A stretch of DNA of 64,000 nucleotides, from contig CABMEV010000003.1 of NCBI GenBank assembly GCA_902385255.1, positions 64,813 through 128,812 on the forward strand. The letters run 5' to 3'. The notes below the pieces were generated by a model. The model did not search any database. It saw only the letters and a list, made by a program, of their open reading frames with translations, and was not told the DNA's origin. Origin of the DNA: Candidatus Tiddalikarchaeum anstoanum. Its GTDB lineage: Archaea > Nanobdellota > Nanobdellia > Tiddalikarchaeales > Tiddalikarchaeaceae. Below are positions 3,614 to 59,390 of the stretch, piece after piece. The position numbers and the translations under genes were made by a program. The stretch's first letter is position 1. Every line of letters begins with the position of its first letter.

Positions 3614-4711
3614 AAGAAACTGTTGATAATATTCTAATACTTTATGAGCTGAGCAGTGAACTATTTTCGAAAAAGTTAATGCTTTCTCCTTCAACTCCCT
3701 TCTAATTTTTGAATTCTTGAATAATTTGCTAATCTTAACAGGGGTCTGGTAGTGCGAGAACTTCTTATACATCTCTTTCTTGCTTAATCCTATGCCTAGT
3801 GTCATGCATGCCTTGGCGTAGACTAGGAATCTCCAATACTGCCTTTTTTCTATCCTTCCTAGGAATACGTCAGCTCGGCTCGCCCAGTCGTATGCTTCCC
3901 TGACTTCAATTGGGTCCTCGTACTCGTTAATTATATTTTCAGCAATCCATAAGTTGACATCTTTTAATTCTAAATCATCAAAATTATCCAATGATTCATT
4001 TAAAGTATCCAAACTCTTCGACTTGAAGACCATCTTTAACACGTCGAATATGTTGACGGTTTTTGCCCTCTCGAATAATTCGTCAACGTCGGCATCGCCT
4101 TTAACATTCTGTAAGTCATTAAGTGCGCTTCTAACATCACCCTGCGCCAAGCTTGCAATCTTTTTCAGACTAATTGTTGATAATGTGAGGCCTTCCTTTT
4201 CGCAGACGTATTTTAAGAGTTTGAACACGTCCCAATATCCTCTCTTTTTAAATTTTATAACTTGGACGTTTGGCTTTATTGACTGCAATTTATCGCTGTA
4301 CTCGTCGTTTGCAGTCATTATTATCGGATAATACGTCTCTTTCACCACTTTGTTAATCTCTGCAACCCCTCCTCTGTCTGCGTTGCCGTACAAGCCGTCT
4401 ATTTCATCTATTAGTATAATCTTAGGCCTTGCTAGAAGGGTTGCCTGCTTGCTGGCATTGCCTACCACGTTATGGATATTGTCAGCATTCCTCTTGTCGC
4501 TCGCGTTTACTTCAATGACATCGTAGCCCTTGCTGTTCGCAACTGCGTATACGCTGCTGGTTTTCCCGCTTCCTTCAGGGCCGACTAATAATACTGCTTT
4601 CTTTTTCTCGTTCTTGAAATTATCCACGAAATCAGAAATGATTTTTACATTCTCATCTAACCCGAACAATTCCTTAACACTCTTCGGATTATACTTGTCA
4701 ACAAAGTTCAT
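3602..4711 (-). CDS. rfcL: Replication factor C large subunit
   Basis: AAA+ Walker A (LLVGPEGSGKTS), Walker B (ILIDEIDGL) and N-terminal KYNPKS..L.G motif typical of RFC. Lies immediately downstream of the RFC small subunit on the same strand. Confidence 0.8.
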   Translation of the reverse strand: MNFVDKYNPKSVKELFGLDENVKIISDFVDNFKNEKKKAVLLVGPEGSGKTSSVYAVANSKGYDVIEVNASDKRNADNIHNVVGNASKQATLLARPKIILIDEIDGLYGNADRGGVAEINKVVKETYYPIIMTANDEYSDKLQSIKPNVQVIKFKKRGYWDVFKLLKYVCEKEGLTLSTISLKKIASLAQGDVRSALNDLQNVKGDADVDELFERAKTVNIFDVLKMVFKSKSLDTLNESLDNFDDLELKDVNLWIAENIINEYEDPIEVREAYDWASRADVFLGRIEKRQYWRFLVYAKACMTLGIGLSKKEMYKKFSHYQTPVKISKLFKNSKIRRELKEKALTFSKIVHCSAHKVLEYYQQFLSSN

Positions 4712-4713
4712 GA

Positions 4714-5661
4714 TTATTCAGCTTTGAAAAACTGGGCGAGTAAACTCTCAAGCTGGACGTACTCGTCGCTTCCTTCTACAAGCCTAAACTCGTAATCGCC
4801 GACGACTCCTATTAATCGAATCTTGGTTTTTGCGCTAACCTTGTCAAGGTTCAAAACTTCCTGCTGTACTTGTTTTATGACATCGATTCCTGACAAGCCG
4901 TGCTTTATCATAGTGTCAAAAAGTAAATCTCGCGCTTTGATGAAGTCGCCGCTAACAGCTATCTCCAAACAATTCTTTATATCTTTCGGGTGGGCGAGAT
5001 TTGAAACTTCATAAACTAACTCCTTGCTAATAGTTGTTCCTATAACGCTTGCTGACTGCAATGTATTAATCGCTTTCCTAAGGTCTCCTCCGCTTACGTT
5101 GAACACTTCCTCCAAGACTGAATCATCAGCTTTCAATTTTTCACCAACTACTATTTTTTTCAGGAAGTCTATTACATCCTTCTTGTCTAATGGCTTAAAT
5201 TTGAATAATACGCACCTTGACTGGATTGGGTCTATAATCTTGCTTGAATAGTTGCAGTCAAGTATGAATCTGCAGCTGGAACTGTACTTCTCCATTGTAC
5301 GCCTTAATGCCTGCTGCGCCTCCCTGGTTAACGCGTCGCTCTCGCCGAGGAATATTATCTTGTAAGGCGCGGCGCCGAGAGCCTTACTTCTTGCGAAGTC
5401 CTTGACTTTATTCCTTATAGTATCTATTCCTCTTTCATCGCTCGCGTTTAATTCCAGAAAGTTTTGTTCAATATTAGAGCCGTATAAGTCATTGGCGAGC
5501 GCTAACGCGCATGTCGTCTTACCTGTACCTGCAGGGCCTGCAAATAATAAGTGGGGCATGCTTTCGCTTTTAGTGAAACCTATTAATCTTTTTATGATAC
5601 TTTGCTGGCCAACAACATCTTTTAATGATCTTGGCCTATATTTCTCAGTCCAGACATCCAT
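4714..5661 (-). CDS. rfcS: Replication factor C small subunit
   Basis: WTEKYRP..L.DVVGQ, P-loop FAGPAGTGKTT, NASDERGID and SRC-like (QSRC) motifs. Size of 315 aa indicates no intein. Confidence 0.85.
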   Translation of the reverse strand: MDVWTEKYRPRSLKDVVGQQSIIKRLIGFTKSESMPHLLFAGPAGTGKTTCALALANDLYGSNIEQNFLELNASDERGIDTIRNKVKDFARSKALGAAPYKIIFLGESDALTREAQQALRRTMEKYSSSCRFILDCNYSSKIIDPIQSRCVLFKFKPLDKKDVIDFLKKIVVGEKLKADDSVLEEVFNVSGGDLRKAINTLQSASVIGTTISKELVYEVSNLAHPKDIKNCLEIAVSGDFIKARDLLFDTMIKHGLSGIDVIKQVQQEVLNLDKVSAKTKIRLIGVVGDYEFRLVEGSDEYVQLESLLAQFFKAE

Positions 5662-50386: not shown

Positions 50387-51340
50387 TTATTTCTCTTCAG
50401 AAAATTGAATTGCGCAGTAGTCCACGAAGTTCACGTAGTCTCCTGTTACGTCGCCGCTCGTGTACTGTTTTAACAATTTGCCTTTTAACTTTTTGGCCTT
50501 CATGTTCTTTAGTACCTGCATGAGAACTCCTATAGCGTTTAATCCGCATATCGTCAGGTTCTCCTTGTCAGTGTATGAGAATAAGGCGTCAACGTGTAAT
50601 TCCTGGATTTCCTTAACGGCTTTCCAGTCCAATACTTTAATATCCTTGTTTAACTCTTCACCTTTCTCGTCGGATAGTGTGAATCCGTAGCTTGGGCCGA
50701 CGTGCGAGAAGTCTGATGAAGCTATGAATAATACGTTCTTGCCGCTCTTCTCCCATGCTTTGAAGATGGCATCTCCTAATTCCTTAATTGTTTTAATATC
50801 ATTAGTGCTGGCGTTTATGCATATTGGCACAATCTTCGGGCACGAATCTCCGAATACGTATTTTAGAAAAGGAACCTGCACTTCAATACTGTGCTCTAAC
50901 GAGTGGCTGAGCTCGTCCTCTATGAAATCCTTATCCTCAGCTTCTATTAATTTATTAAATTCTGAATCAACTTCAACTTCGCCTATAGGTGTTGCCCAGA
51001 CTCCCTCCGGAAATAATGCGGCGCCAATCCCTATACTGTTATGATTAGGTCCTATTATTACAACCACGTCAGGTGTTTTATTTTCACCTACTAATCTGTA
51101 AGCGTGGGCTGCGCATGGACCGCTCATGTCATAACCTGCATGAGGGCATATGAAAGCCATGAATTCGTCCGTCTTCTTCACCAAAGGTTCGTTCTTCGGC
51201 CCGAATTCATTGTTTAAAAAACAGTTTTTAATCTGGTTGTCAAGTTCCTTAGCTGAGCTTTTATAGAATGTACCGCTTACTCTTTCAAGTCTATAAGTCT
51301 TCATCTGTGAAATCTTCCAACTTGTAAGTATAATCTTCAT
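50387..51340 (-). CDS. Memo-like protein (AmmeMemoRadiSam system protein B family)
   Basis: ICPHAGYDMSGPCAAHAY and downstream His/Asp-rich blocks; located next to S2 as in many archaea. Confidence 0.65.
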   Translation of the reverse strand: MKIILTSWKISQMKTYRLERVSGTFYKSSAKELDNQIKNCFLNNEFGPKNEPLVKKTDEFMAFICPHAGYDMSGPCAAHAYRLVGENKTPDVVVIIGPNHNSIGIGAALFPEGVWATPIGEVEVDSEFNKLIEAEDKDFIEDELSHSLEHSIEVQVPFLKYVFGDSCPKIVPICINASTNDIKTIKELGDAIFKAWEKSGKNVLFIASSDFSHVGPSYGFTLSDEKGEELNKDIKVLDWKAVKEIQELHVDALFSYTDKENLTICGLNAIGVLMQVLKNMKAKKLKGKLLKQYTSGDVTGDYVNFVDYCAIQFSEEK

Positions 51341-51917
51341 CCTTCTTGATTAATCCGCGGTTTTTCAAATATTCGCGGCCAAGTATCCAGAATACAAGCG
51401 GCAGACTCTTCTTGCTTTTATTATTACACGGAATAGCATAATCAACATTTTCTAAAGAGTTACTTGAGCCAACTAGGGCAACAATTGGAATATTACAAAG
51501 CCTGGCATCTTTTATTACCTGTCTGTCAGGCCAAGGGTCGCATACTACTATGAGTTTAGGTTCGAAGAATCCTTCATATGCAGGATTAGTTAATATGCCA
51601 GGAAGATATCTTCCTGTTATTCTTTTCATGCCTGTTATTGATGCAGCTTTCTTGACAGCTTTATAACCAGTCTCTCTTCTGCATACTATTAATATATCCT
51701 GAGGCGCGTACTGGGCTAAGAATTTGCCTGCAATCTTTAATCTCTCATCTATTTTTTGAACATCAAGTATTTTGATTCCCTGCTGTTTAGTCTTGTAAAT
51801 GAACGCTTCAACACTTTTATCCTTGTATTTTGTTCCAATATGTATTGCTGATTTCAAGTACCAGTCAAGTGGAACTAGAAGGTTTGCACCTTCTTCTTTT
51901 TCTTTTTTTGCTGTCAT
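51291..51917 (-). CDS. rps2: Ribosomal protein S2 (uS2)
   Basis: HIGTKYKDKSVEAFIYKTKQQGIKILDVQK...RYLPGILTN matches archaeal S2. Confidence 0.85.
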   Translation of the reverse strand: MTAKKEKEEGANLLVPLDWYLKSAIHIGTKYKDKSVEAFIYKTKQQGIKILDVQKIDERLKIAGKFLAQYAPQDILIVCRRETGYKAVKKAASITGMKRITGRYLPGILTNPAYEGFFEPKLIVVCDPWPDRQVIKDARLCNIPIVALVGSSNSLENVDYAIPCNNKSKKSLPLVFWILGREYLKNRGLIKKDEDYTYKLEDFTDEDL

Positions 51918-51922
51918 GTTTT

Positions 51923-52096
51923 TTAATCCCTTTTAATTGTTATCGGCAAGACGCCTTCTTCCATCTCTTTTTTAGCTATGGAGATAACGTCAAACATATC
52001 TTTTGGCCTTTTTATAAGTATTGGTGCGTCCATACTGAGTTGCAGCGCCCTAGCGCTGAGTATCCTTGCTTTTTCGAATTTATTGTACGATTCCAT
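51923..52096 (-). CDS. rpoK: DNA-directed RNA polymerase subunit K (Rpb6/omega homolog)
   Basis: 57 aa, below ORF-track cutoff: MESYNKFEKARILSARALQLSMDAPILIKRP... matches the RpoK core. Confidence 0.7.
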   Translation of the reverse strand: MESYNKFEKARILSARALQLSMDAPILIKRPKDMFDVISIAKKEMEEGVLPITIKRD

Positions 52097-52104
52097 GTTC
52101 TAAA

Positions 52105-52887
52105 TCACTTTAAATTTTTAATTATTTCACTAATTTTGTCTCTTATTTTAAAGCTTTCCTCAACGCATTGCTCAATTTCTTTGACATTAAAGCCGCCTTT
52201 CCCGCCTTTCTGCATTGCGTTTATTTCGCCTTCACTGCAGGTTATAGTAAGCCTGGCGTCGCTAATTTGTTCTTCATCAGAGTCCGGGTCTATAAGGAGG
52301 GTGTCATCTATTTTTACAAACGTTGTTGGTATTGGAACCTTTATGAAAGGTATTTTTCCATTGCTCCACTCGCCTAATACTACCTGGTTCTTAGCATCCA
52401 ATTTTGGCATTTTTGCATTCTTTAATGCTGAAATTGCCGCTAAGCCGCAGGCGTCGATTAAGTTGCCGTCATTGTTTAATATATATACGTCAACGAATAC
52501 GTTCCAGACTTTCTCTCCTGGAATTATGCATAACTTGTCTATATCTATCGCTCCGCTCTCCCTTATTCCCCTGTCGACAACCCTTGATAATTCTATAGCA
52601 TCCTCTGTTGGAGGTCCTGGTTCGAACTTCACATCTGATATGGCGCTTAATTCAACATTGCATACCAAGTTTCCGGAATTAGGAGTGTCAGGGTAAGGTG
52701 TTCCCACACTCATCTTCACACCTGCTATTACCTGCGTGTCGCCTATCCTTAACAATGCGCTTCCTTCTGCGTTCTTGCTGACATCAGTCTCTACGCTTAT
52801 TGGCCTGTAATCGTTCATTCTTCTGTCCCTGTTTCTTAACTTCTTGTCAGCCAGTGCAAGTATGTATTCTCTTAATTCTTTCTTCAT
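52105..52887 (-). CDS. rrp42: Exosome complex component Rrp42 (RNase PH-like, non-catalytic)
   Basis: RNase PH fold motifs (DYRPISVETDV..AEGSALLRIGDTQVIAGVK; EPGPPTEDAIELSRVVDRGIRES; LNNDGNLIDACGLAAISAL). Confidence 0.75.
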   Translation of the reverse strand: MKKELREYILALADKKLRNRDRRMNDYRPISVETDVSKNAEGSALLRIGDTQVIAGVKMSVGTPYPDTPNSGNLVCNVELSAISDVKFEPGPPTEDAIELSRVVDRGIRESGAIDIDKLCIIPGEKVWNVFVDVYILNNDGNLIDACGLAAISALKNAKMPKLDAKNQVVLGEWSNGKIPFIKVPIPTTFVKIDDTLLIDPDSDEEQISDARLTITCSEGEINAMQKGGKGGFNVKEIEQCVEESFKIRDKISEIIKNLK

Positions 52888-54257
52888 TTCTTGTCATCCC
52901 CGATTTTTTTGGCTGCAACTTTTGCTTCTTTTAACAATTTGCTCGTAATCTCCCCTTCATCAGCGTACTTTTTCAGGACGTCCTCGTTTATGAGTTCTCC
53001 TTTCCCGTCTTTTTTAACGACTGCTAATTCCAGGTTTATAGTTGCAGCTTTCTCAGTCTGCAGTTCTACAGGCGTGTTTATTATGTATACTTCACCTTTC
53101 AGTTTATTATCCTCAGAGTAGAACGAATGCTTCGTGTACCATGCGTCTTTTTTAAGCTCTGTCAGCGCATAATCGCCTCTGTCAAAGATAATGTCTAATC
53201 CGTTATACTTTGAGCCGCTTTTCATGAAGCGCTTCAGCACTATCTTGTTCTCATCTCTTTTTTCAATCCTTCCTTTTAAGAAATTTGTAGTGCCATCAAG
53301 CCTGTACTCTGCAGCAAGGTATAAGTCTCCTTCCTTCGGAGCTTTTGATAAGACAAAACTCTCTATTTCCTTGTTTAATTTCTTCTCATTGAATCCTGCC
53401 TTTATCAAATTCTCGCTGAAGTCCACGACGTTGTGGAAATTATCTGTCTTGTAAGTGTGGTGGTTTTCAACTGTTGGCTTAACTTCACGTCTTAATGCAT
53501 CAAGAGTTTCTTTTGCAGTCTTGTCAAACCGCATATATACAGTTATTAATCCTTTTCTTATCAGTTTAGGGCCTTCTTCTTTTTCGAATTTCTCTTTTAT
53601 CTTGTCGTAATCCTTGTATAAGTCGTCGATTTCTTTTTTCAATTCGTCATCTTTCTTGTCCTGCGCGCTGCTCTTCCATAATATGCCCCATCCTTCCTTG
53701 CATTTCTCGTCAGTTATCTTGTTCAGTCTCACTGACTCTTCCCTATCTCGGATGTTGCTGCTTAATTTCGTGAATCCTTTCTGGATTAGTACAGTATCAG
53801 GTCCGAAGATGTGTATCTTCGTGCTTAATGTGTAGCATTCAGGGTCTTCCTCTTTTAACTGCACTAGGATTTTCTCCCCTTCCTTCACATAGCCCCAGTA
53901 ATCTTTGAGCGGAAGGAGTCCTATCTTTTTCAGTCCCAAGTCTACGTGAATATTCTTAGTGTTAGGGTCCAGTTTTATTATCTTACCAAGGTATATGTGG
54001 CCGGATTCTTCTTTTTTTACGGCTACGTGCTCCACATCATCCATTATTACCTTAGTTACTTTCTCGCTCTCTTCGCCTTTTATTACTATTCCATTCTTGT
54101 CAGCTAAGTCATGTATAATAGTATCATAGTCCTCGTCGAATTTGGCTTTCTTGAAAGAATCTTTTACATTCTCGCTTGGACTGCTTACTTTTATTTTATT
54201 TTTCAGTAGTAGCTGTGTTAATGCACTACTATAAATTCCTCTGATTTTTACACTCAT
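52884..54257 (-). CDS. FAU-1-like RNA-binding protein (RNase E/G-like, DUF402-containing family)
   Basis: N-terminus MSVKIRGIYSSALTQLLL resembles archaeal FAU-1 N-termini as recalled; 457 aa. Translationally coupled (4-nt overlaps) between Rrp41 and Rrp42. Confidence 0.5.
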   Translation of the reverse strand: MSVKIRGIYSSALTQLLLKNKIKVSSPSENVKDSFKKAKFDEDYDTIIHDLADKNGIVIKGEESEKVTKVIMDDVEHVAVKKEESGHIYLGKIIKLDPNTKNIHVDLGLKKIGLLPLKDYWGYVKEGEKILVQLKEEDPECYTLSTKIHIFGPDTVLIQKGFTKLSSNIRDREESVRLNKITDEKCKEGWGILWKSSAQDKKDDELKKEIDDLYKDYDKIKEKFEKEEGPKLIRKGLITVYMRFDKTAKETLDALRREVKPTVENHHTYKTDNFHNVVDFSENLIKAGFNEKKLNKEIESFVLSKAPKEGDLYLAAEYRLDGTTNFLKGRIEKRDENKIVLKRFMKSGSKYNGLDIIFDRGDYALTELKKDAWYTKHSFYSEDNKLKGEVYIINTPVELQTEKAATINLELAVVKKDGKGELINEDVLKKYADEGEITSKLLKEAKVAAKKIGDDKK

Positions 54258-55054
54258 TTTTCAATCACTTCGTATTTTTTCTTTATAGCTTGTTTCATCA
54301 TTTCATGTATTTTTTTGCATGCTTTAGTGCCTGCGTTTATCGCCTGCATTAATTCATTCTTTGTTACCTTACCATCTAATTGTAACAGTGTTATCTCATC
54401 AAGTGCAGGTATGTATGCTATTGGGATATCCGTCGCTCCTCCGCCTTCATGGTAGTCCTCTTCGTGTTTTGTGATGTCAACGCATATCTTATCATCTATT
54501 TTTCCAACTGCAACAGCCGGCACTAATCCTCTCATCATTATCCCAGCATCTGCAAGCGCTAATGATGATGCTATTACTGCTGCGCATCTTGAACCTGCGT
54601 CTGCCTGCGGGATTTCTATGAATAATTGTATCATACTTTTTGGGTATTCTTCTACAAATATTGCTTTCTCAACAGCATTTTTTATGACAAGCCCTAATTC
54701 TATGCTTCTCCTGCTTGGTCCGGGTCTTGCCCTGTCTGTTACGCTGAAGCTCATCAGGTCATAATAGCATTTTATTATTAATTTTTCAGTGTCTTCCATG
54801 TGTTTAGGCCTAACTTTCTGCGGTCCGAAAACCCCTGCTATTGCGACTGTGTCCCCAACTTGGACTCTTGCGCTCCCGTCAGCATTGTCAAGAACTCCGA
54901 TATCCATAGATATTGGCCTTAATTCGTCAAATCCTCTCTTGTCGAATCTTTTTTCGTAACCGTGAGTTTGTTTCTTGACAGCCACTTTCTTGTTTTCCTT
55001 CTTTGGTTCTTTTTTAACTGTTTTTTTAATTTGTGCTTTTTTCTTTGTAACCAT
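54254..55054 (-). CDS. rrp41: Exosome complex exonuclease Rrp41 (RNase PH-like, catalytic)
   Basis: DKRGFDELRPISMDIGVLDNADGSARVQVGDTVAIAGVFGP and QADAGSRCAAVIASSLALADAGI motifs. Confidence 0.8.
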   Translation of the reverse strand: MVTKKKAQIKKTVKKEPKKENKKVAVKKQTHGYEKRFDKRGFDELRPISMDIGVLDNADGSARVQVGDTVAIAGVFGPQKVRPKHMEDTEKLIIKCYYDLMSFSVTDRARPGPSRRSIELGLVIKNAVEKAIFVEEYPKSMIQLFIEIPQADAGSRCAAVIASSLALADAGIMMRGLVPAVAVGKIDDKICVDITKHEEDYHEGGGATDIPIAYIPALDEITLLQLDGKVTKNELMQAINAGTKACKKIHEMMKQAIKKKYEVIEK

Positions 55055-55057
55055 CTT

Positions 55058-55744
55058 TTATTCACCTTTGTTTAGCATTTTTTCAATCTTTTCTGTAAGT
55101 CCGCTAGTGTGACTTTCGTTTGAAATTTTTTCAATGATATTTTTCGCCTTTAACGTATCTACAGGTTCTCCTTTTATCCATACTATCCCGTTTTGCCCGA
55201 TTATTATCTGGGTCTTTGTCTTGTCTTTTATCATTGATATCATGCTGCCTTTTGTTCCGATAAGTCTTGGTATTTTGGAACTGTTTATTTTCATTATTAT
55301 TCCGCCGTTTAGTTTCTTGGTTTCCTGCTCCTTCATTGTTAACGTGACTATCTTGCTTTTGGTCAGCCCTATTATTTTTGCAAATATGACATCGCCGTAT
55401 GTGTAATAATATGTCATATCATTCTTTTCAAGGTCTATGAATTCCCTGCTTGCTTCCCTAACTGGGAGTGAAGCGTCATAAGGGCAGTTTACGTCTATGA
55501 ACCATGAAGAGAAATTCATATCCGTAACCGTTCCGATAACGTAGTCTCCTCTTCTTGGCATATAAACGCTCTTGAATCCATTGACTTGTATTGCGTTATT
55601 TTTTAAATTCACGAGTCCAACAATGCTCGAGATAATTTGTTCACCATTCCGGTAAGTCCCTTCGCTTGGTATTAAGTCCATACCTTCAGCTAGTACTTCT
55701 CCGGGTGTTACATGTTCCCTTTCTTTAACTATTATTTTGCTCAA
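55058..55744 (-). CDS. rrp4: Exosome RNA-binding subunit Rrp4 (S1 and KH domains)
   Basis: VTPGEVLAEG...PSEGTY; GDYVIGTVTDMNFSSWFIDV (S1); IPRLIGTKGSMISMIKDKTKTQIIIGQNGIVWI (KH). Confidence 0.8.
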   Translation of the reverse strand: MSKIIVKEREHVTPGEVLAEGMDLIPSEGTYRNGEQIISSIVGLVNLKNNAIQVNGFKSVYMPRRGDYVIGTVTDMNFSSWFIDVNCPYDASLPVREASREFIDLEKNDMTYYYTYGDVIFAKIIGLTKSKIVTLTMKEQETKKLNGGIIMKINSSKIPRLIGTKGSMISMIKDKTKTQIIIGQNGIVWIKGEPVDTLKAKNIIEKISNESHTSGLTEKIEKMLNKGE

Positions 55745-55750
55745 AAATTT

Positions 55751-56452
55751 TCACCTCTGTGTTATATTTACTTCTCCGTGAGTAGCTTCATTCAAAGCTT
55801 TGATCACTTCTTCTTTTAATCCGCCGGGTATTTTTATTATGAAATGCCATGAGCCGTCGCTCATCCAGTCACTTTTTATCATTTTTCCAAACCTGGCTAC
55901 TGCGTTATGCGCTTTGCCTCCGTACTTCGGTCCGGTGTAACCTTCTATTGTTGCCTCTTCAAACCTTATTGGCAGTACGGGTCTTAAAGCATCAAGTACT
56001 GTTTCTATCTGCTCCTCTGCGCTTTTGAACGGGTCAAAGTTAATTTTTATCTGTTCAAGCGCTAATTCTATCCTCGTACCAGGTATAGGGAGATTAGTTC
56101 TCGGGTCTATACCTTGTCGTGAGATTATGCTTATTATTTCTTTCTTCTTCTGTTCCTGCAGTTCTCTTTTATACTCGGTCGTGAACTGCATGTTTCCTTC
56201 TTTTATTATCTGGCCGGAGATTTGGTCTTCATTGTCCGTTCCGAAAACTTCCTTTAAATTCCCAGACCTCTCGCCTGTTTTTACATCCTTGAAAATTCCC
56301 TCAATTTCTAATGCTTCTTTCACATCATTTATTTGCCCTTTTTTGAAAGCTATGGCTTTGTCAGGTATTATTAATACTTCAAACGTCTGCCCGTTGCGTT
56401 TTAGTGACGCGATGTGATGCTGTTTCTTTTTCTGCTCGTATACGATTCTCAA
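55751..56452 (-). CDS. SBDS/Sdo1 ribosome maturation protein homolog
   Basis: N-terminal FEVLIIPDKAIAFKKG...DVKEALEIEGIFKDVKTGE FYSH-like domain; position between proteasome alpha and Rrp4. Confidence 0.75.
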   Translation of the reverse strand: MRIVYEQKKKQHHIASLKRNGQTFEVLIIPDKAIAFKKGQINDVKEALEIEGIFKDVKTGERSGNLKEVFGTDNEDQISGQIIKEGNMQFTTEYKRELQEQKKKEIISIISRQGIDPRTNLPIPGTRIELALEQIKINFDPFKSAEEQIETVLDALRPVLPIRFEEATIEGYTGPKYGGKAHNAVARFGKMIKSDWMSDGSWHFIIKIPGGLKEEVIKALNEATHGEVNITQR

Positions 56453-56484: not shown

Positions 56485-57180
56485 TTATTCCTTGCTGTCT
56501 TTTCCTTTGAAATCCTTCATATTGATAGGTTTGAATGTCTTGTCGCTTTTTTCAATTATTACGCCTTCAAGTCTGTCTATCTTGAAGTTGCTGTTCAATG
56601 CGTTTTTTAGTGCTTCAACTGCCAATGATATGGCTTCGTTTTTTGTGAGCCCGTCTTTGTAATTCTTGTTGAAATATTCTATTATTTTTTTGCTGTTCTC
56701 TCCTATAGCTCCTGCTTTAAATTCGAAGTATACCCCGCTCACTTCAGTTATGAAGAGGTGGGGCTTGTCGTCGTATCCGGCTATCAGGAAGCTTACTCCG
56801 TATGGTCTCATTCCGCCGTACTGCGTGAATGCCTGCATCTGGTTGCATATATCCTTCACAACGCTTTTTATATCAACATCCTCGTCATACGTTGTTCTGT
56901 GATTTTGCGCAGCCACTTGTGCATGCTCGACTAGTATCCTGCCGTCACTGACTAATCCGCTCATTGCTGCAGAAATATGTCTGTCTATAGGCATTATTTT
57001 TTCAACACTGTTTGGTATCACTAATTTTTCAAATAAGACTTTATCAGCGATTAATACTACTCCTTCTTTGAATGTTACACCTACTGCTGGAGTTCCTTTG
57101 TTTACTGTTTCCTTTGCATACTCTACCTGTAATAATCTTCCATCAGGGGAGAACATTGTAATTGCTCTATCATAACCCAT
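56485..57180 (-). CDS. psmA: Proteasome alpha subunit
   Basis: YDRAITMFSPDGRLLQVEYAKE signature. Start placed at internal Met to avoid overlap with upstream gene (track ORF extends to 57207). Confidence 0.85.
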   Translation of the reverse strand: MGYDRAITMFSPDGRLLQVEYAKETVNKGTPAVGVTFKEGVVLIADKVLFEKLVIPNSVEKIMPIDRHISAAMSGLVSDGRILVEHAQVAAQNHRTTYDEDVDIKSVVKDICNQMQAFTQYGGMRPYGVSFLIAGYDDKPHLFITEVSGVYFEFKAGAIGENSKKIIEYFNKNYKDGLTKNEAISLAVEALKNALNSNFKIDRLEGVIIEKSDKTFKPINMKDFKGKDSKE

Positions 57181-57184
57181 TACA

Positions 57185-57538
57185 TCATTGGGAAAACCGT
57201 TTACCATCTTTTTTTAAAACCTCATTTTTTGCTAATTTTTTTATGCTTCCGCTTGTTTTAAGCGTATTGATTACTATTTGCTTTTCTCCGATACGCCTCA
57301 CGAGTGATAAGACAGCAATCATTGTATCTTTGTACTGGCTATCTACGCGGATAATGTTATCGTTTACGATTTGAATTCCGGCTTTGGAAAAACCATCTTC
57401 TCCTAAAAATCTGAGAGCCGTATCGTATATACCTTTCTTAACCTCATCTTTAAAAACTTTTTCATCACTTATCACTTCAAAATATATGTACCTCTTCTTA
57501 TGCCTTGATGAGGGAAGAATCATATTAATTATAACCAC
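57185..57538 (-). CDS. rnp2: RNase P protein subunit Pop5 (Rnp2)
   Basis: 117 aa; KRYIYFEVIS motif and position immediately upstream of psmA. Confidence 0.6.
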   Translation of the reverse strand: MVIINMILPSSRHKKRYIYFEVISDEKVFKDEVKKGIYDTALRFLGEDGFSKAGIQIVNDNIIRVDSQYKDTMIAVLSLVRRIGEKQIVINTLKTSGSIKKLAKNEVLKKDGKRFSQ

Positions 57539-59257: not shown

Positions 59258-59341
59258 TGCGGGGTTGCCGGAGTGGTCAAACGGGCTAGCTTCAGGAGCT
59301 AGTGGCTTAGTGCCTGCGCGAGTTCGATACTCGTACCCCGC
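59258..59341 (+). tRNA. tRNA-Leu (anticodon CAG), class II with long variable arm; no encoded CCA
   Basis: Folded by hand: acceptor GCGGGGT/ACCCCGC, D-stem CCG/CGG, anticodon stem CTAGC/GCTAG with loop TTCAGGA, 15-nt variable arm, T-arm GCGAG-TTCGATA-CTCGT, discriminator A. Confidence 0.8.
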
Positions 59342-59390
59342 ATATTTCTTTAAGGTTTTTTGGTCCAGATTTCTTCTTAAAGAAAGATGG

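Follow-up and report, generated by a model that had tools for sequence, protein, structure and literature searches.

A FAU-1/RNase W homologue between the exosome genes rrp41 and rrp42 in a clade of Nanobdellota has probably lost its nuclease activity

Why should the gene of an rRNA-maturation factor lie between the genes of the two ring subunits of an archaeal exosome? The question is raised by a 64,000-nucleotide (nt) stretch of DNA (contig CABMEV010000003.1, positions 64,813 to 128,812; hereafter the window) from Candidatus Tiddalikarchaeum anstoanum, a DPANN archaeon (Nanobdellota; Nanoarchaeia; Tiddalikarchaeales), in which Rrp41 and Rrp42 are not directly adjacent and are separated by the 1374-nt gene of a FAU-1 homologue. 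In Thermococcales and Haloferax, FAU-1 (also known as RNase W) contributes to the maturation and stability of rRNA, and ribonuclease activity and a role in pre-rRNA maturation are known for Pyrococcus furiosus, Thermococcus kodakarensis and Haloferax volcanii. By examining gene order around FAU-1 homologues, a phylogenetic tree of the proteins, and the residues of their nuclease centre, we propose, with a confidence only a little above even, that this RNase W orthologue of Nanobdellota is a non-catalytic RNA-binding partner of an exosome lacking the subunit Csl4.

The window protein (457 amino acids, aa) is a full-length FAU-1/RNase W homologue. The initial annotation, made from the letters of the DNA, had recognized a FAU-1-like N-terminus, and the likeness extends over the whole chain: phmmer against the PDB aligns residues 2-452 with residues 11-468 of P. 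furiosus FAU-1/RNase W (8wo8, 8rza; E=1.1e-63), with weaker alignments to RNase W of Sulfolobus acidocaldarius (8rzf) and to the S1/5'-sensor part of Escherichia coli RNase E. An identical 457-aa protein is named 'RNA-binding protein AU-1 [Candidatus Tiddalikarchaeum anstoanum]' at NCBI. The AlphaFold2 model (65 homologues in the alignment) has a pLDDT of 93.3 and a pTM of 0.86, with no segment below 50; Foldseek places it closest to P. furiosus RNase W (8rza_A, E=2e-44; TM 0.72-0.74 to 8rza and 8wo8 over ~467 columns; 0.69 to 8rzf), with separate matches to the S1/5'-sensor structures of RNase E and to DUF402 phosphatases. Together the model and the structural matches give the complete RNase W architecture (central/N-terminal part, S1, 5'-sensor, helical part and C-terminal DUF402 barrel), so that length and domain order are those of the characterized family members (P. 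furiosus 8RZA and 8WO8; S. acidocaldarius 8RZF; H. volcanii; T. kodakarensis TK2227); identity to the P. furiosus protein is 34-35% over the whole length, with R12, H271/H272, R355 and T378 shared. A Pfam scan of the open reading frame (ORF) gave RNase_E_G (2.3e-10) as the sole match and did not detect DUF402. That the protein is related to RNase E/G, as the initial annotation had stated, holds for the family and for the S1 and 5'-sensor folds, which match the N-terminal half of the bacterial enzymes (E. coli 2BX2, Caulobacter crescentus 4OXP; Foldseek E ~1e-10; 4oxp TMt 0.69); unlike those enzymes, the window protein is without the DNase I-like catalytic domain, the Zn link and the small domain. 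No RNase W protein, this one included, ever had the active site of RNase E, and the nuclease centre proper to RNase W is lost from this copy (see below).

The gene belongs to a co-oriented string that reads Pop5 - proteasome alpha - SBDS - Rrp4 - Rrp41 - FAU-1 - Rrp42 - RpoK - uS2 - Memo, in which the three exosome genes are tightly packed (the gap between Rrp4 and Rrp41 is 3 nt). ORF, Pfam and NCBIfam assignments bear out the placement of the 457-aa protein between Rrp41 and Rrp42, and the 4-nt overlaps claimed for both of its ends can be read directly from the sequence, each being an ATGA. Among the NCBIfam equivalog models, those for Rrp4 and Rrp42 score above their curated cut-offs, and that for Rrp41 reaches 275 bits against a cut-off of 318.7; the window Rrp41 aligns with Rrp41 of Pyrococcus abyssi (2pnz) at E=1.3e-64, including the motifs PGPxRRSIE, QADAGxR and D..K.EE.Y.

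Whether relatives share the insertion, as the initial annotation had wanted to see checked, was addressed by a synteny survey of 88 FAU-1 loci, including 80 metagenomic loci fetched with an alignment-derived pattern. ORFs were labelled by phmmer against the window's own operon proteins, a labelling that is sensitive enough because the window Rrp41 finds that of P. abyssi at 1e-64; a genome-contig search with the window protein gave two loci, and distant homologues were located by exact-protein look-up. Both genome loci, with FAU-1 proteins 55-59% identical to the window copy, have exactly the gene order of the window; the order Rrp41-FAU-1-Rrp42 is found again at L003, L005 and L006 (FAU-1 identity 36-41%), and FAU-1 stands alone at L007 and L008 (30%). 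Over the whole survey, Rrp41 lies immediately upstream of FAU-1 in 29 of the 88 loci, with Rrp42 immediately downstream wherever the contig reaches, and the remaining 59 loci have zero exosome genes within ~5 kb. Chance does not account for this order, which is found again in 29 loci that were assembled independently and have FAU-1 proteins 30-64% identical to the window copy; at three additional loci found through proteins (L089, L090, L095) FAU-1 is embedded too. The gaps at the embedded loci run from -56 to +15 nt between Rrp41 and FAU-1 and from -83 to +16 nt between FAU-1 and Rrp42, with a mode of -4; junctions of at most 16 nt leave no room for an internal promoter.

On a neighbour-joining tree, one branch parts the 28 full-length embedded copies from 60 stand-alone copies, including that of P. 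furiosus. Named members on the embedded side are Tiddalikarchaeum, 'Nanoarchaeota archaeon', 'Nanoarchaeia archaeon' and 'Parvarchaeota'/Jingweiarchaeum (L089); on the stand-alone side they are Thermococcus, Bathyarchaeota/Bathyarchaeia and Freyarchaeota, so that the RNase W gene of the Thermococcus and Bathyarchaeia kind stands by itself, whereas the window gene is part of an exosome operon. Loci were also gathered starting from Rrp42 and not from FAU-1, and in this exosome-first sampling three loci labelled 'Nanoarchaeota archaeon' (L091, L092 and L093) have Rrp41 and Rrp42 adjacent without FAU-1; an insertion universal in Nanobdellota is therefore rejected. The insertion is a clade feature, neither unique to this genome nor universal in the phylum: every DPANN-type FAU-1 in the sample sits inside an exosome operon, and the reverse does not hold. 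The initial annotation had conceded that its point would fall if the arrangement were already described as standard synteny; the open-access literature, including the papers on RNase W and on the Tiddalikarchaeum genome and the supplement on Undinarchaeota, yielded no prior description of FAU-1 within the exosome operon or of a loss of its nuclease centre.

Compared with the canonical archaeal superoperon (Pop5-PsmA-SBDS-Rrp4-Rrp41-Rrp42-L37ae-RpoP...), the window keeps the order from Pop5 through Rrp41 and on to Rrp42, and differs in the inserted FAU-1 and in having RpoK-(enolase)-uS2-Memo downstream where the canonical form has L37ae-RpoP-Pcc1. The classical form is seen in a Hydrothermarchaeota control (L094) and at L091, which carries L37ae-RpoP-Pcc1 and has reverse gyrase nearby; L092 and L093 keep the DPANN-type Rrp42-RpoK junction, and each of L091, L092 and L093 has a gene at 4001-4780. 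The Rrp42-RpoK junction of the window is common to L003, L005, L006, L089, L090 and L095. An enolase gene follows RpoK and precedes uS2 at L003, L005, L089 and L095, and is absent between the two in the window and in its nearest relatives, L001 and L002.

What, then, does the embedded protein do? Ribonuclease activity has been traced in RNase W to its C-terminal domain, DUF402 (Vayssieres et al. 2024, PMC11602121), where in the P. furiosus protein a first Mg is bound by N404, D420 and D424 and a second by D424, D437 and D364, and H326 and K328 contact the phosphate on the scissile side; in the isolated C-terminal domain, D424K abolishes activity and H326A cripples it (PMC11602121). Four independent alignments in agreement (a HMMER pairwise alignment, two by MAFFT, and an hmmalign of 264 family members) map P. 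furiosus H326, K328, D364, N404, D420, D424 and D437 to E317, R319, N352, I392, N408, A412 and N424 of the window protein, so that none of the seven is preserved. The C-terminal beta-barrel and helices also match DUF402 nucleoside di- and triphosphatases (Staphylococcus aureus Ntdp/Sa1684 7D8G, FomD 5ZDN, SC4828 3CBT; E 1e-6 to 6e-6), and the D/D/N metal ligands common to these phosphatases and RNase W are likewise all missing from the window protein. Because the catalytic feature that defines the family fails, we file the protein as a non-canonical and probably non-catalytic variant of RNase W; its nuclease activity has probably been lost, and with the centre residues gone its status as a ribonuclease should not be assumed.

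The losses follow the operon context. All seven centre residues are present in 59 of the 60 stand-alone copies (the remaining one has D437G), whereas the 28 full-length embedded copies comprise 10 with every centre residue kept, 4 with N404S only (three of these also changed at H326), and 14 in which at least two centre residues are lost. On neighbour-joining trees the degenerate copies occupy four or more distinct places: the window clade, whose sister P0017 is intact; P0026/P0050; P0052 with L017, L019 and L025; and a 438-aa 'Parvarchaeota' type (P0028, P0101, P0111, P0119); P0026 and P0101 were confirmed to be operon-embedded. The same count was obtained on a tree restricted to residues 1-300, in which the grouping owes nothing to the C-terminal domain. 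Among ~241 full-length family sequences, loss of D420/D424 is confined to these lineages. Within the window clade, position 408 may be N, K, S, C or M and position 412 A, G, V, T or I.

A gene falling into decay, or a wrongly called ORF, might be thought to account for lost catalytic residues in a domain that is the least conserved of the protein. A pseudogene or chance ORF was nonetheless rejected, and almost no credence is due to it: the 457-aa frame is intact, at least 15 members of the clade, at 50-64% identity, keep to a length of 453-464 aa, the structural model is confident throughout, and the frames overlap precisely with those of both neighbours. A second alternative is that the protein still cuts RNA, through a site within the central domain, via a centre re-built around the clade-invariant E317, K328 and D362, or by a metal-independent mechanism. 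In its favour, full-length P. furiosus RNase W carrying D424K or H326A kept near-wild-type activity in vitro (PMC11602121), E317 (in place of P. furiosus H326) is found in 15 of 15 window-clade members, and D362, K328 and E398 are also conserved in the C-terminal domain. The positions equivalent to D364, N404, D420 and D424 vary freely within the clade, however, which signals released constraint; a section title of the same paper gives the central domain of the P. furiosus protein as without RNase activity; and in the window protein the domain is no longer recognized by Pfam DUF402. We consider a still-active ribonuclease improbable.

In the part of the protein that would bind RNA, by comparison, constraint has been retained. 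Mean pairwise identity in the window clade is 74.7% for the S1/5'-sensor region against 50.1% for DUF402, and 55% of positions in the former are near-invariant against 14% in the latter, whereas in the stand-alone copies the two regions stand at 52.8% and 57.0% identity; the weight of constraint in the window clade has moved off the C-terminal domain. In the 5'-sensor pocket K164 and S166 are kept (P. furiosus K170, S172), with K195 for R201 and S196 for T202, and in its basic patch R173, K174 and R181 of P. furiosus are replaced by S167, N168 and S175. The regulatory residues are preserved (R6 for P. furiosus R12, H266/H267 for H271/H272, and a conservative K4 for R10), the HH pair being invariant in 65 sequences, and the RNA groove keeps R343 and T366 (P. 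furiosus R355 and T378), which hold the 5' phosphate of a bound dinucleotide. With the nuclease centre replaced and the RNA-binding half constrained, a non-catalytic RNA-binding accessory factor is the most likely description of the protein. Two substitutions are seen in embedded copies more generally: at the position of P. furiosus R10, the residue that locks the 5' phosphate, 27 of 30 embedded copies have Lys and 58 of 60 stand-alone ones have Arg, and at that of R201 in the 5'-sensor 24 of 30 embedded copies have Lys and 60 of 60 stand-alone ones have Arg. A group of short FAU-1-like proteins of 318-337 aa (P0325, P0328, P0329, P0332, P0334, P0341, P0354, P0361, P0365, P0380, P0381) has its best match only at profile positions ~235-457 (helical part and DUF402), plus a second separate stretch; they appear to be without most of the S1/5'-sensor half, a reduction opposite to that of the window protein.

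Evidence for a partnership with the exosome comes from outside the DPANN as well. The functional link drawn by the initial annotation from gene order gains independent support from T. kodakarensis, in which a pull-down with His6-DnaG (TK1410) contained Rrp42 (TK1633), Rrp41 (TK1634) and FAU-1 (TK2227), although the FAU-1 gene of that species is unlinked to TK1633/TK1634 (PMC2962436, Table 2); from operon position together with this pull-down we infer that the FAU-1 of DPANN archaea may bind the exosome. Csl4, the S1/Zn-ribbon cap subunit that tethers DnaG, is lacking in Undinarchaeota and in Cluster 2 DPANN, the group that includes Nanoarchaeota, and the authors of that report asked what its loss means for these exosomes (PMC7414124 and supplement). 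Like Csl4 and DnaG, the window protein is a predicted RNA-binding protein encoded with the ring, or, in the case of T. kodakarensis FAU-1, purified with it, and an S1 domain is a further feature that it shares with Csl4; beyond that generic fold it has no homology to Csl4, being without the Zn-ribbon and the Csl4 N-terminal domain. Neither Pfam nor NCBIfam gave a Csl4 match for the protein, and Foldseek matches to exosome cap chains are marginal (E ~1e-2). Searches by phmmer of the 64-kb window detected no second FAU-1 copy (with FAU-1 and with its S1 region) and no Csl4 (with the N-terminal and S1 parts of Rrp4; only the query genes matched), negatives that say little since the contig to which the window belongs measures at least 208 kb. 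The superoperon itself is rich in genes of rRNA and ribosome biogenesis.

That last context admits a different explanation, namely that FAU-1 is an independent rRNA-maturation factor, like RNase W of H. volcanii, merely co-expressed from a compact DPANN superoperon and making no contact with the exosome. Unrelated machines are indeed encoded in the same string (Pop5, proteasome alpha, SBDS, RpoK, uS2, Memo), some Nanoarchaeota exosome operons do without FAU-1 (L092, L093), and the role of RNase W in 16S maturation needs no exosome; halophiles such as H. volcanii are not known to have one. Set against this are the exact position of FAU-1 between two subunits of an obligate heterodimer, with overlapping or near-abutting frames down to ~30% identity; the restriction of catalytic-residue loss to embedded copies, which is hard to explain if the job of the protein were unchanged; and the co-purification of FAU-1 with DnaG, Rrp41 and Rrp42 in T. 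kodakarensis (PMC2962436). We regard simple co-expression as possible, though rather unlikely.

The mechanism that we favour, a non-catalytic RNA-binding partner of a Csl4-less exosome, can be outlined as follows. FAU-1 has a fixed place between rrp41 and rrp42 in this clan of Nanobdellota, where it is transcribed together with the ring subunits and coupled to them in translation. The residues of the DUF402 centre that bind metal or take part in catalysis have been replaced in the Tiddalikarchaeum lineage. Strong constraint persists on the N-terminal part, on S1 and the 5'-sensor, and on the helical part with its HH motif. The protein may accordingly bind single-stranded or 5'-monophosphorylated RNA and not cut it, and may cooperate with the exosome, for example by handing the trailers of pre-rRNA, or intermediates of decay, to the phosphorolytic sites of Rrp41; the window Rrp41 retains its conserved motifs.

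Several considerations weigh against this proposal. The residue losses are strong but not conclusive as a sign of inactivity, given the full-length P. furiosus mutants that stayed active. The operons at L091 to L093 that lack FAU-1 mean that the exosome of the group does not strictly need it, and since proteasome alpha, SBDS, Pop5 and uS2 are encoded in the superoperon without being exosome products, adjacency alone is no proof of a complex. The T. kodakarensis match is a single pull-down with a MASCOT score of 235, not discussed by its authors (PMC2962436); no fusion of FAU-1 with an RNase PH protein (Rrp41/Rrp42) was found among the best 150 of 378 strong representatives, the longest of which has 528 aa; an intact FAU-1 paralogue may lie elsewhere in the genome, outside the 64-kb window; and Vayssieres et al. 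saw RNase W as a monomer, with no trimer (PMC11602121).

The last point bears on an extension that we put forward tentatively, as possible rather than probable: in Csl4-less Nanobdellota FAU-1 could be a stoichiometric exosome component, trimerizing via DUF402 on the Rrp41-Rrp42 ring or the Rrp4 cap, so that the machine could do without the nuclease centre of FAU-1, which then decayed independently in four or more lineages. A homotrimer of FAU-1, held together by DUF402, was described by Kawai et al. (2024), as reported in a citing paper; such a trimer would fit the three-fold ring and explain why an inactive DUF402 has been retained, and in this way it also speaks for the favoured reading of a link to the exosome. 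If so, these proteins would be an archaeal parallel to the subunits of the eukaryotic exosome that turned into non-catalytic scaffolds, and the association of FAU-1, DnaG and the exosome in Thermococcus would be ancient and general.

The features of the locus are collected in Table 1. The window Rrp41 begins with a Lys-rich extension of ~35 aa, and its homology to the proteins of L001, L002 and the PDB chains begins only at residue 35-36; it may be an additional tail that binds RNA, or else the start codon may have been called too early. Rfam gave a sole match in the window, an 84-nt tRNA, which is longer than the standard and may be of class II or intron-containing. Pfam gives nothing at E<=0.01 for two ORFs that flank the operon region, of 334 and 113 aa; a position like that of the latter is held in relatives by a DUF192 protein, beside TYW3 (L005, L089).

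Table 1. Features of the exosome superoperon and its surroundings, in window coordinates.
Feature	Position	Strand	Basis or remark
RNase P subunit Pop5/Rpp14	57185..57538	-	PF01900 1.8e-12
Proteasome alpha subunit	56485..57207	-	Proteasome 8.6e-54; Proteasome_A_N
SBDS	55751..56452	-	SBDS_N, SBDS_domain_II, SBDS_C
Rrp4, exosome cap (S1 + KH)	55058..55744	-	NF003181 1.2e-70; ECR1_N_2, RRP4_S1, KH_6
Rrp41, exosome phosphorolytic subunit	54254..55054	-	TIGR02065 3.2e-82; Pfam RNase_PH + RNase_PH_C
Rrp41 N-terminal Lys-rich extension	54950..55054	-	MVTKKKAQIKKTVKKEPKKENKKVAVKKQTHGYEK...
ATGA overlap, Rrp41 stop / FAU-1 start	54254..54257	-	GAA AAA TGA / ATG AGT GTA
FAU-1/RNase W homologue	52884..54257	-	ORF, ATG start, 457 aa, N-terminus MSVKIRGIYSSALTQLL
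S1 + 5'-sensor region, residues ~79-200	53658..54023	-	TIGR00757 residues 79-249; E. coli RNase E 82-240
DUF402-like C-terminal domain, residues ~301-440	52938..53357	-	beta-barrel pLDDT 86-97; Foldseek 7d8g, 5zdn, 3cbt
ATGA overlap, FAU-1 stop / Rrp42 start	52884..52887	-	AAG AAA TGA / ATG AAG AAA
Rrp42, exosome ring subunit	52105..52887	-	NF003282 4.7e-91, 304.5 bits (cut-off 280)
RpoK (Rpb6-like), 57 aa, directly downstream of Rrp42	51923..52096	-	PF01192 4.6e-09; ORF shorter than the default length cut-off
Ribosomal protein uS2	51291..51917	-	PF00318 9.3e-25
Memo-like protein, last gene of the co-oriented string	50387..51340	-	PF01875 2.4e-65
ORF, 334 aa	57563..58567	-	
ORF, 113 aa	48834..49175	-	
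tRNA	59259..59342	+	Rfam, 51 bits

It was only in 2024 that RNase W/FAU-1 came to be defined as a nuclease of ribosome biogenesis, the first specific to archaea, and the present finding bears on its partners as well as on the composition of DPANN exosomes without Csl4, a question raised by Dombrowski et al. (2020). The conserved and coupled placement between ring subunits predicts that FAU-1 works on or with the exosome, and the repeated decay of its nuclease centre, only in the embedded context, points the same way. To judge from their residues, the degenerate copies would be natural 'separation-of-function' variants, with RNA binding retained and catalysis lost, for the study of the RNase E-like N-terminal half. 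Database entries for these proteins carry the labels 'ribonuclease E/G' or 'AU-1' with no comment attached, and in these DPANN archaea the labels 'ribonuclease E/G' and 'RNase W' may name an activity that has since been lost.

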